Virus genome (UHGV): UHGV-0135785 | Length of the DNA stretch: 41,119 nucleotides | Origin: a virus | Strand: one strand, 5' to 3' | Shown: piece after piece, positions 30,001-36,000 of the stretch | How the letters are laid out: every line of letters starts with the position of its first letter | Position numbering within the stretch: the stretch's first letter is position 1 | Position numbers: made by a program

Positions 30001-33000
30001 GATAAATCGGCGCATTCCAGCAAACAGGTAGAGGCGTTCCGTTACAATTCTGAAGGCGTTAAAGCACTACAACACCTGCTACATGGCTCAAATGTGGCGT
30101 AACATTTTATAATGAAAACTAAACCCGCTTAATCGCGGGTTTTTTCTTTCCTTAGAATTTCAGCCGCAACTTCTTTTACTCGTTCCGAGATTAATGAGGC
30201 CAGCCTCTCTTCTTCATCACGATACCCGCTTACAGGTGATGGTTTGGAGAGTGATTCTTCCATCGTAGCCACAATTTCGGAATTGATAGACCTGTTATTC
30301 ATTTTTGCACGCTGCTTAATCTTAGCGTGCAACTCGTGTGTAAGCCTCAAGTGGAACTGCGCCTCATCGTATTTGCTGTACATCATCAATGCCTCACCAA
30401 ATGGGTGGAATGGCATCGTAAAACCTACTGTACAAATCAACAATCGTACCGTTTCGGTATGTAATAAATGCCAACCGTAGCCATGCTGCGGCGATTCCTT
30501 GTATCTGGAGCAAATTAAATGACAGACATTACAGCCAATGTTGTAGTGAGTATGCCTTCGCAACTCTTCACTATGGCGCGTTCTTTTAAAGCCGTAGCTA
30601 ATGGCAAAATTTATATCGGTAAAATTGACACTGACCCGGTAAATCCTGAAAACCAGATTCAGGTCTATGTTGAGAACGAAGATGGTTCTCACGTTCCTGT
30701 TTCGCAACCAATCATCATTAACGCCGCTGGATATCCGGTATATAACGGACAGATTGCCAAGTTCGTAACCGTGCAAGGCCATTCTATGGCTGTTTATGAT
30801 GCGTATGGTACACAGCAGTTCTATTTTCCGAATGTGCTGAAGTATGATCCTGATCAGTTACGGCAGCAATTAGAAGACCCAGATGGAGCGAATAAATACC
30901 CAAAACTTCAGATAGCAAGATGGAGAGACAGTTATGATGTAAGAGGTTGGGGGGCTATTGGTGATGGTGTTCATGATGATACATCAGCTCTATCAGAATT
31001 ACTTTCTGTTGCAACAGGTGGTGAAAAGATAGATGGGCGAGGGCTTACTTTTAAAGTATCAACTCTTCCAGATGTCAGTCGATTTAAAAATGCTCGTTTT
31101 TTATTTGAGAGAATACCGGGTCAGCCTCTTTTTTATGCTTCTGAAGATTTTATCCAGGGAGAGTTATTTAAAATTACAGATACACCGTGGTACAACGCCT
31201 GGACGCAGGATAAAACGTTTGTATATGACAATGTCATCTATGCGCCTTTTATGGCTGGAGACCGCCATGGTGTAAATAACCTCCATGTTGCATGGGTTCG
31301 CTCAGGAGATGACGGGAAGACCTGGACAACGCCGGAATGGCTTACAGATTTACATGAAAACTATCCCACAGTTAACTATCACTGCATGAGTATGGGGGTT
31401 GTCAGAAATCGCCTTTTTGCTGTAATTGAGACGCGGACCGTGAGCGGAAATAAACTGCAGGTTGCAGAGTTGTGGGATCGCCCAATGAGTCGCAGCCTTC
31501 GCGTTTATGGTGGTATAACGAAAGCAGCAAATCAGCAAGTCGCTTATATTCGCATTACTGATCACGGATTATTTGCTGGTGATTTTGTCAACTTCTCAAA
31601 CTCTGGTGTTACAGGTGTTACCGGGAATATGACGGTGACTACTGTTATTGATAAAAATACTTTTACAGTTACGACGCAAAATACCCAGGATGTGGATCAG
31701 AATAACGAGGGTAGATACTGGAGTTTTGGTACATCATTTCACTCGTCACCATGGAGAAAAACCAGTCTTGGAACTATTCCTTCTTTTGTTGACGGAAGCA
31801 CTCCTGTTACTGAGATTCACAGTTTTGCGACGATTAGCGATAACAGTTTTGCTGTTGGCTACCATAATGGTGATATTGGCCCACGCGAGCTTGGGATACT
31901 CTATTTCTCTGATGCTTTCGGTTCTCCTGGTAGCTTTGTTCGCAGACGCATACCTGCAGAATATGAGGCGAATGCATCTGAGCCATGTGTAAAATATTAT
32001 GATGGCATTCTGTATCTGACGACCAGGGGGACATTAAGTACTCAACCCGGTAGTTCATTGCACAGAAGCTCTGATTTAGGTACATCATGGAATTCTCTTC
32101 GCTTCCCAAATAATGTTCATCACTCAAACCTTCCTTTTGCCAAAGTTGGCGATGAGCTGATTATTTTTGGCAGTGAGCGCGCATTTGGTGAGTGGGAAGG
32201 AGGAGAACCTGATAACCGTTATGCAGGAAATTATCCAAGAACATTTATGACCAGAGTTAACGTCAATGAGTGGAGTCTGGATAATGTAGAGTGGGTTAAT
32301 GTTACTGATCAGATTTATCAGGGCGGAATAGTTAACTCTGCGGTTGGTGTTGGTTCAGTTTGTATCAAAGACAACTGGCTGTACTACATTTTCGGTGGGG
32401 AAGACTTTCTAAACCCATGGAGCATAGGGGATAACAACAGAAAATATCCTTATGTTCACGATGGTCACCCGGCTGATTTGTATTGTTTCAGGGTGAAAAT
32501 TAAACAGGAAGAATTTGTTTCAAGGGATTTTGTCTACGGAGCCACTCCTAACAGAACGCTTCCTACTTTTATGTCGACGTCAGGCGTGAGGACGGTTCCT
32601 GTACCCGTTGATTTCACAGATGATGTTGCCGTCCAGTCACTGACTGTCCATGCAGGTACATCAGGACAAGTTCGCGCGGAAGTCAAACTTGAGGGTAATT
32701 ACGCCATTATTGCGAAGAAAGTACCGTCTGATGATGTTACCGCTCAGAGATTAATCGTTAGCGGCGGTGAAACAACGTCTTCAGCAGATGGTGCAATGAT
32801 AACGTTGCATGGTTCCGGAAGCAGTACTCCACGTCGCGCGGTATATAACGCACTCGAACATCTTTTTGAGAACGGAGATGTTAAACCTTATCTTGATAAT
32901 GTAAATGCTCTTGGTGGTCCGGGAAACAGGTTCTCGACAGTTTATCTTGGCTCCAATCCTGTGGTTACCAGTGACGGAACATTAAAGACAGAGCCGGTCT

Positions 33001-36000
33001 CTCCTGACGAAGAATTGCTGGATGCCTGGGGTGACGTCAGGTATATCGCTTATAAATGGCTGAACGCTGTCGCTATAAAGGGGGAAGAAGGGGCGAGGAT
33101 ACATCATGGTGTAATCGCGCAGCAACTTCGTGATGTTCTTATTTCTCACGGACTCATGGAAGAAGAAAGCACAACATGCCGCTATGCCTTTCTTTGCTAT
33201 GACGATTATCCCGCAGTATATGATGACGTCATTACTGGCCAAAGGGAAATGCCGCTGACTGATAATGACGGGAGCATCATTGTTGATGAGGATGATAATC
33301 CAGTGATGGTAATGGAAGACATCATTGAGCGCGTTGAAATAACGCCAGCAGGATCTAGATGGGGGGTCAGACCTGATCTCTTATTCTATATCGAGGCGGC
33401 ATGGCAGCGCAGAGAAATAGAAAGAATAAAAGCTAGGTTAGACTTAATAGAAGGGAAGCACTAAATGTTTCGTTGGCGTCAAAAATATGAACTGCTCACA
33501 TAAAGAAGTAAGTACATTGGCAAAAAACATTGACGTCAACGAAATTAAATATAAAAATTTAAATGCTTTTTAATGACAAGAAAAGTAACTAGTGGTAAAA
33601 TAACGTAGGATACTAATATGTCAAGACTCAAGACTCAAGACTCAAGACTCAAGACTCGTTTTCCGTTGATGATAATGGGTCAGGTAATATTTTTGTATGT
33701 GGAGATCTTGTAAATAGCAAAGAGAATAAAGTTCAGTTCAATGGAAACAATAACAAACTTATTATAGAAGATGATGTTGAGTGTCGATGGCTTACCGTAA
33801 TATTTAGGGGTGATAATAATTACGTAAGAATACATAAAAACAGTAAGATTAAAGGTGATATTGTCGCAACAAAAGGTTCAAAAGTTATTATCGGTAGAAG
33901 AACGACAATAGGTGCAGGTTTTGAAGTCGTCACTGATAAGTGCAATGTTACAATTGGCCATGACTGCATGATAGCAAGAGATGTTATTTTGCGTGCATCA
34001 GATGGGCATCCTATATTTGATATTCATAGCAAAAAAAGGATTAATTGGGCAAAAGATATCATTATATCTAGTTACGTATGGGTAGGGAGAAATGTCTCTA
34101 TAATGAAAGGGGTATCTGTTGGAAGCGGATCTGTCATTGGGTATGGGAGTATTGTAACTAAAGATGTGCCATCTATGTGTGCAGCAGCCGGTAATCCAGC
34201 AAAAATAATAAAAAGAAATATAATATGGGCAAGAACGGATAAAGCGGAGCTAATTAGTGATGACAAGAGATGCTCCAGCTATCATGCGAAGCTCACGCAA
34301 TAAATATAAAACATCATGCAGACATATTACCAATATTAATATAAGGTAATAAAAATATAATTTACAAAAAAGCCCGTTGGAAGCGACGGGCATTAACCGC
34401 GGTAATGGATAAATTATTAATGTTTTTAGATTGTGAACGATATCATATTGTGCGGAAGTAGTGAAGTAACCATGTAGAATGATTGTTTCATAGCCTATGA
34501 GACACACAAGGCTTTGTGCTCTTCGATAGTTGTTAAGGCGGATCACTCTACCTTCTCATCAAGCCAATCCGCCCACCACTGCATCATTTCTCTGCGCTTA
34601 TCGAGATACTGAGCATGGTTGTAAATCCCACGCACAGATCCGCCGTTGGCATGTGCCAGTTGCACTTCAATAGCGTCAGCAGGCCATTCGTGCTCGTTCA
34701 TAATCGTGCTGAATTCATGCCTGAATCCGTGACCGCTTTCCAGACCTTCATAGCCGATTTGTTTGATCACAAGCAATACCGCGTTCTCGCAGATTGGTTT
34801 CTTCTTATCGTTGCGCCCGGCAAAAACAAACTCTGAGACTGGTTTGGTGATTGAGCTTAGCGTAGTAAGAAGTTCAACCACTTGGTCTGACATAGGAACC
34901 ACATGAATTTTGCGTCCCTTCATCACACTGGCGTCGATGGTGATAATCCTGTTTTCAAAATCGACGCTCTTCCATTGCATGGAACGAAGCTCTTTCGTTC
35001 TTAGGGCTGTGTAGCGTAAGACTTTGGTCGCAATGAGCGATACGATACTTCCTGAAAATGTTGCCAGTGCTTTGTTGAATGCAGGGATCTGGTCTGCTGG
35101 AAGAAACGGGAAGTTCTTCTTGCGGTATCCTTTCATGGCGTCTGCAAGGTCAGGTGCCGGGTTATATTTAGCCCTTCCGGTGACAATAGCGTAACGAAAA
35201 ACCTCGCCGCATCTTCTGCGGGCTTTATTGGCTCGTTCCATTGCACCGCGATCTTCAAATCTGCGGATTACTTCCAGCAGTTGCATCGGCTCAATATCCT
35301 GAATCTCAAGACCGCCGATGATAGGTAAAATGTCGTCATCAAACATTTTTGCAAGTTCAGTCGCATACCCTACTGACCATACTTGCTTCTTGTGCTCGTA
35401 CCATTCTTTGTAAATCGCACTAAAGGAATTGTTGTTAGACGAAGCCTTTTTCGCCTTTACCGGATCGATGCCAACCGAGATGTCTTTCTTCGCGGTCCAT
35501 GCTTTATCTCTTGCCTCCTGCAAAGTCATTAGCGGATATTTTCCTACGGTCAGTATTTTTTCCTTACCGTCAATCTTGTAGCGAAGCTGCCATACCTTTT
35601 TCCCTGATACAGGGACATAAAGATACAGGCCATTACCGTCGAGAAGGCGGTATGGTTTTTCTTTCGGCTTTGCTGCTTCAATCTGCTTAACGGTGAGCAT
35701 GGGTAAAAATCCGGTGGGTAAAATTATTTTATCCACTTTTTACCCGTCATGGAGTGCGGCTGTCAACGATCTGACGCGAACCATTACGAACTGTGAATCT
35801 ACGGAAGGCTTGATATTCAGGGGATTTTGCGGACTGTTACGGATGGGAGCGAACTGATAAATGGTGTCCCCTGCAGACATCTACTTGAAGCGGCAGGGGA
35901 TTGATTGGAATGGTGTTTTTTAGATGTGAAAAATATTTTACCCGCTATTTTACCCATTGGCGCGGCTTAAGAGCTTATTTTTGAATTCACAATGGTCACG

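Follow-up and report, generated by a model that had tools for sequence, protein, structure and literature searches.

The virus genome UHGV-0135785, a stretch of 41,119 nucleotides that was analyzed as a whole and is referred to below as the window, carries a gene whose product is almost certainly a receptor-destroying tailspike, that of a temperate CUS-3-like phage of the P22 type (Lederbergvirus) that infects Escherichia coli K1. The gene aligns with siaK1 of phage CUS-3 (CP000711) at 98.9% nucleotide identity over 100% of its length and, by this identity, is an allele of a tailspike gene that is already known from published and biochemically characterized work. The two proteins share 99.2% of their amino acids. 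They differ at 8 of 981 positions (V9I, P43T, T98A, P121T, A207V, G767R, T807I and E832T, window residue first), none of which is a catalytic or cleavage residue. In CP000711, siaK1 is annotated as "endosialidase tailspike protein," citing direct-assay evidence of endo-alpha-sialidase activity (PMID 16689790). Publications from 2005 to 2007 described the endosialidase tailspike of CUS-3, how it is built as a chimera and how its gene is linked to neuO, the gene for a polysialic acid O-acetyltransferase; reviews cover all of this. The reviews state the K1 capsule specificity of CUS-3 (PMC5380687, PMC11990801) and describe its chimerism, in which the N-terminus is shared by P22, Sf6 and HK620 while K1F shares the catalytic domain (PMC5380687). 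K1 polysialic acid, which an earlier note on the window had proposed as the receptor, is thus strongly indicated by near identity to the siaK1 of a K1-specific phage.

The surroundings of the gene agree with this identification. Taken as a whole, the window aligns collinearly with CUS-3 in a mosaic of blocks that are 91-99% identical, and its gene order is P22-like; by these features it is assigned as a CUS-3-like Lederbergvirus genome. Within it, the tailspike gene occupies the position of P22 gene 9, lying 3ʹ of the ejection-protein genes and of the immI region (arc, ant, mnt) and 5ʹ of neuO and int.

The encoded protein is modular. A Pfam profile search of the protein finds six domains in the expected contiguous order (Table 1), all above the curated gathering cut-offs and with scores far past chance; for the catalytic beta-propeller profile (End_beta_propel), the cut-off is 24 bits and the score 775. 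At the N-terminus, the full-length match to the head-binding profile, within a P22-like genome, identifies a P22-type head-binding domain, as had been proposed for the first 115 or so residues. Structures in the PDB match the same region: Sf6 gp14 over residues 1-118 (E 3e-67) and P22 gp9 over residues 1-117 (E 1e-52), and 1lkt aligns too. In a structure-sequence comparison of the tailspike, no P22 similarity was found beyond about residue 117-127, which bears out the view that the remainder is unrelated to P22 gp9. The local alignment to gp17 of phage K1F, the endosialidase endoNF, begins at window residue 114 (K1F residue 214), and similarity to P22 and Sf6 ends at about residue 113-118. The fusion point therefore lies directly after the YDPDQ hinge.

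What follows this point had been described as an endosialidase-like body. The relation to endosialidases stands, but the word "like" is too cautious. By its propeller profile, catalytic residues, two Asp-boxes, beta-barrel and stalk, the body is a GH58 endosialidase with a bona fide endosialidase beta-propeller. The endoNF structures 1v0e and 3gvl match residues 145-817 (E = 0). Both Asp-boxes that had been picked out, at about residues 261 and 518, lie in the propeller, SGDDGKTW at residues 262-269 (nucleotides 31302-31325) and SSDLGTSW at residues 517-524 (nucleotides 32067-32090), and they are the only matches in the protein to the pattern S-x-D-x-G-x-x-[WFY]. Directly 3ʹ of the stalk, the Peptidase_S74 profile PF13884 scores 41.2 bits, where the cut-off is 22. 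The endoNF chaperone structure 3gw6 matches residues 698-979 (E 4e-94; the C-terminal 200 residues give E 1e-69). This profile match after the stalk, together with a Ser-Lys dyad, assigns the C-terminus to Peptidase S74. The earlier note had seen there a self-cleaving chaperone resembling that of K1 endosialidases, with the motif TSDGTLK near residue 820; the motif occupies residues 817-823, the C-terminus aligns to the endoNF chaperone domain, and cleavage is predicted.

Conservation extends to the individual residues on which activity and maturation would depend. When the protein is aligned to K1F gp17 taken from AM084414, K1F residues H350, R549, E581, R596 and R647 correspond to H250, R456, E488, R503 and R554, all identical, and the second-shell residues Q330, K585 and N699 of K1F are conserved as well. 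In a deep mutational scan of K1F, which also gives a list of the catalytic residues, the catalytic ones were intolerant to mutation (PMC12632334). The autocleavage dyad of K1F, S911 and K916, five residues apart, corresponds to S818 (nucleotides 32970-32972) and K823 (nucleotides 32985-32987). The predicted autocleavage bond lies between T817 and S818, because, in the crystal, the last residue of the mature endoNF chain is the very one that aligns with T817, and because the K1F record divides gp17 into mature and C-terminal domain peptides at the point aligned to this bond. As far as the sequence goes, it holds nothing that speaks against tailspike function.

Some differences weigh against a simple transfer of K1 tailspike function to this protein. 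Among them is any effect that the eight substitutions relative to CUS-3 may have. Another is M760, a residue shared with CUS-3 and aligned to Q853 of K1F, a stalk sialic-acid-site residue in endoNF. There is also G310 in place of K1F K410, a residue reported to be essential in vitro. K410 was tolerant to substitution in the K1F deep mutational scan (PMC12632334), and CUS-3 SiaK1 has the same residue as the window protein at 310, because this position is not among the eight differences. Taken together with the linkage of the tailspike gene to a gene for a receptor-modifying O-acetyltransferase, the two sialic-acid binding-site differences from K1F could be read as a shift in specificity, in which the enzyme, co-evolving with its own neuO, would prefer O-acetylated polysialic acid or the K92 polymer of alternating alpha-2,8/2,9 linkages. 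Such a shift is very unlikely. The active-site residues are identical to those of K1F, both binding-site differences occur in CUS-3 too, and the near-identical CUS-3 protein, besides its assay-based annotation, is described as K1-specific; beyond these two residues, the shift has no positive support.

For a tailspike of a CUS-3-like K1 phage, the preferred reading, a mechanism can be drawn by analogy with K1F endoNF and P22 gp9, with enzymatic activity, autocleavage and docking expected to resemble those of the near-identical or homologous proteins that have been characterized. The 981-residue precursor would trimerize, with the C-terminal chaperone domain (residues 818-981) guiding or nucleating assembly. 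The stalk would fold first, after which the Ser818/Lys823 dyad would cut between T817 and S818 and free the chaperone; what remains would be a mature trimer, kinetically stable and with chains of about 817 residues. Through its head-binding domain (residues 1-113), the trimer would dock into the P22-type tail hub. The propeller (residues 213-662), using E488, R503 and R554 with H250 and R456, would hydrolyze K1 polysialic acid at internal alpha-2,8 linkages; with the nested beta-barrel and the stalk providing extra sialic-acid binding sites, the virion would tunnel through the capsule to the outer membrane.

Table 1. Features of the tailspike gene and its surroundings, in window coordinates
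Feature	Position	Strand	Details
siaK1-type endosialidase tailspike gene	30519..33464	+	ATG start, 981 amino acids plus stop, intact open reading frame
Shine-Dalgarno GGAG	30507..30510	+	8 nucleotides 5ʹ of tailspike ATG; read directly in the sequence
P22-type head-binding (tail-hub docking) domain, residues 1-113	30519..30857	+	NVLKYDPDQ hinge at end; PF09008 (Head_binding) 1-113/113, E 6.2e-67, 223 bits
Neck/linker, residues 114-145	30858..30953	+	First part common with K1F endoNF (K1F 214-245), 56% identity
Endosialidase N-terminal extension, residues 146-212	30954..31154	+	PF12218 (End_N_terminal), E 8.9e-37
Six-bladed catalytic beta-propeller, residues 213-662	31155..32504	+	PF12217 1-367/367, E 1.2e-233
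Lectin-like beta-barrel nested in propeller, residues 324-406	31488..31736	+	PF12195 (End_beta_barrel) 1-83/83, E 1.2e-46
Catalytic residue H250	31266-31268	+	
Catalytic residue R456	31884-31886	+	
Catalytic residue E488	31980-31982	+	
Catalytic residue R503	32025-32027	+	
Catalytic residue R554	32178-32180	+	
Stalk, triple beta-helix, residues 663-817	32505..32969	+	PF12219 (End_tail_spike) 1-160/160, E 7.5e-78
C-terminal intramolecular chaperone domain (Peptidase S74), residues 818-981	32970..33461	+	PF13884 covers 818-878
Candidate neuO promoter	33573-33601		Promoter scan
neuO contingency locus	33618..34303	+	ATG 33618; five AAGACTC repeats 33623-33657 (Tandem Repeats Finder, TRF); hexapeptide acetyltransferase body in other frame
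int-side terminator	34372-34391		Terminator scan
IntS-type tyrosine integrase	34543..35736	-	End of late/conversion region; PF00589, PF22022, PF13356; collinear with CUS-3 int
torI (TorI-type excisionase)	35950-36165	-	Within 293 base pairs separating two tRNA fragments
arc-like gene	27920-28294	-	immI
Bro-N/P22_AR_C antirepressor	28656-29285	+	immI
Second antirepressor (phrog_1726)	29374-30102	+	immI
mnt repressor gene	30129-30383	-	PF03869, E 3e-15, 84 amino acids
Gene for 156-amino-acid protein	65-535	-	Matches only phrog_1636 (function unknown)

The allele is widely deposited. NCBI entries with the exact 981-residue sequence already exist (EHW5889789.1 is one), on 107 contigs, and its 90% cluster has 3581 members; of 5426 complete E. 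coli genomes, 181 contain 80% or more of the tailspike gene. The closest match in the phage database is vB_EcoP-720R6 (ON470605.1), at 99.4%. This phage is without neuO and has ybhB and bioA/B/F-type host genes at its flanks; because these flanks differ, the same tailspike would also be carried by a P22-like prophage at another integration site. In phiv205-1 (MN340231.1, 1345-6740), an insertion sequence (IS) element with two transposase genes interrupts the tailspike gene after about nucleotide 207, and the remnants are a 72-residue head-binding fragment and a separate open reading frame (ORF) for the body.

Between the tailspike gene and int, P22-like relatives carry receptor-modifying conversion genes. 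The gene found there in the window, which the earlier note called neuO-like and paired functionally with the tailspike, is neuO, and the hexapeptide profile PF00132 (Hexapep) matches its body. On CUS-3, neuO encodes a phase-variable polysialic acid O-acetyltransferase and lies between siaK1 and int, and full-length NeuO is made only when the copy number of its heptanucleotide repeat is a multiple of three (PMC8653822). Simulated tracts behave accordingly: 3, 6 or 9 copies give a full-length product and 5 copies a 31-residue peptide. Because the five repeats of the window put the acetyltransferase body out of frame, its neuO is phase OFF, and the tailspike and neuO are therefore not co-expressed partners in this sequence state. 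The suggested pairing thus holds for the identity of the neighbor but not for joint expression in the state sequenced. It matches known biology in that NeuO O-acetylates the polymer that serves as the receptor. The CUS-3 record has the same AAGACTC repeat in 19 copies, versus 5 in the window, and according to one paper, phase-ON strains usually have 14-39 copies. With so short a tract, the neuO of the window is expected to switch less often. A scan for promoters and terminators returned a candidate neuO promoter and an int-side terminator (Table 1) and was otherwise uninformative; promoter-like sites were no more numerous than in shuffled sequence.

The out-of-frame neuO, and the clear degradation of some relatives such as phiv205-1 with its split tailspike gene, might suggest a decaying prophage relic, in which the tailspike gene looks intact but its product is non-functional or not assembled and has no present role. 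This is scarcely credible, because the ORF is intact, as is the phage genome as a whole, whereas in phiv205-1 the gene is split. The ORF is full-length, with 981 codons as in CUS-3, and is preceded by a good ribosome-binding site; all of the catalytic and cleavage residues are conserved. The surrounding P22-like genome is complete and collinear with CUS-3, including the terminase, portal, coat, ejection protein and lysis genes, int and torI. The OFF state of neuO, moreover, is a normal and reversible state of a contingency locus and not decay.

The endosialidase part of the intact K1 tailspike also occurs in a phage of another lineage. In the temperate Uetakevirus vB_EcoP_ZX5 (MW722083.1, 2542-5661), the tail protein QTH80017.1 has 1039 amino acids and is identical to window residues of about 175-970 except at two positions, with 99.6% DNA identity over nucleotides 522-2914 of the gene. 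Unlike the window protein, it has an N-terminal anchor of about 190 residues (MTVSTEVDHNEYTGNG...), and its last 12 or so residues differ. The genome of vB_EcoP_ZX5 also differs in being epsilon15-like, with the tail gene beside lysis genes and with another integrase. The breakpoints between the two sequences would be intragenic, one within the N-terminal extension of the endosialidase and the other in the chaperone domain's final helix. Because the segment is almost unchanged behind a different anchor, it seems rather probable that the endosialidase cassette (residues of about 175-970) was exchanged very recently between two unrelated temperate podovirus lineages, Lederbergvirus and Uetakevirus, in K1 strains. 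If so, this would be live swapping of a tailspike module, at about 99.6% DNA identity, in contrast to the ancient relation to K1F described in the literature, at 56-70% amino acid identity.

Upstream of the tailspike gene, the immI region (27000-30500) is unlike that of CUS-3, and CUS-3 homology resumes 45 base pairs (bp) 5ʹ of the tailspike ATG. A minus-strand ORF of 217 amino acids (30129..30782) extends over the first part of the tailspike gene. It was rejected as a gene and is regarded as an ORF-extension artefact of mnt, because only its C-terminal 84 residues, the mnt segment listed in Table 1, match Arc/Mnt.

Beyond int, the attP region (35860-36190) contains two pieces of tRNA sequence, a 15-nucleotide tRNA-Arg 3ʹ fragment at 35862 and a 16-nucleotide T-arm fragment at 36170; the second is the "core" of the CUS-3 record, and both are as attP would predict. 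ARAGORN finds neither argW nor any other tRNA gene in the window. The 293-bp segment that separates the two fragments and holds torI is without counterpart in CP000711. Of 5426 E. coli genomes, 1405 contain it, and in E. coli SCU-124 the integrated prophage has it at its far end. Its reading as an insertion into attP was dropped because the segment is widespread and ends the SCU-124 prophage and because CP000711 stops before torI; it is instead the torI of the known KplE1/CUS-3/HK620/Sf6 module (torI-attP-intS). The boundaries of CUS-3 as deposited probably exclude its own xis gene, because the same segment ends the integrated prophage in SCU-124.

The window shows a circular permutation of the CUS-3 prophage. 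Its ends (positions 1 and 41119) fall between N and kil/cIII in the early-left operon, and attP links int to the early-left genes. Given this permutation and the joined attP, the window resembles a phage genome that is complete and either excised or circular, and not a chromosomal segment. Positions 1-1000 are low in GC (guanine plus cytosine) content (0.37) and without counterpart in CUS-3; the gene at 65-535 may be a moron of the early-left operon.

As a known allele whose exact protein has been deposited many times, the tailspike gene has little discovery value. Its use lies in annotation. It identifies the window as a temperate, CUS-3-like phage specific for the K1 capsule. The host is predicted to have this polysialic acid capsule, as is typical among extraintestinal pathogenic E. 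coli, and the locus beside the tailspike gene is flagged as a phase-OFF neuO allele. Endosialidases are of practical use as polysialic acid probes and as anti-K1 agents, and to these uses the allele of the window adds nothing new.

Among known systems, the closest is SiaK1 (endoN-CUS3; ABQ88383.1, CAJ29292.1), which likewise has 981 amino acids and the same domain order, with neuO and int downstream and a P22-like backbone. CUS-3 departs from the window in its upstream immI region and in the length of its neuO repeat tract. EndoNF (gp17) of K1F, a GH58 enzyme of known structure (1v0e, 3gvl, 3gw6), aligns over K1F residues 214-1064 with window residues 114-981; the propellers are 70.4% identical, and for stalk plus chaperone domain the figure is 56%. 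The catalytic residues, both Asp-boxes and the Ser-Lys dyad are all conserved between the two. Unlike endoNF, which has another N-terminal anchor, the window protein carries the P22 head-binding domain, and it has a 7-residue insertion in the FVDGSTP region (about residues 423-429). The tailspikes of P22 (gp9), Sf6 (gp14) and HK620 share with it the head-binding domain (residues 1-113) with the YDPDQ hinge and the same genomic position; over these residues, the Sf6 gp14 N-terminus is nearly identical and that of P22 gp9 closely similar. However, the body of these tailspikes is a right-handed parallel beta-helix endorhamnosidase without a C-terminal S74 chaperone, whereas the receptor-binding body of the window tailspike is a beta-propeller endosialidase.

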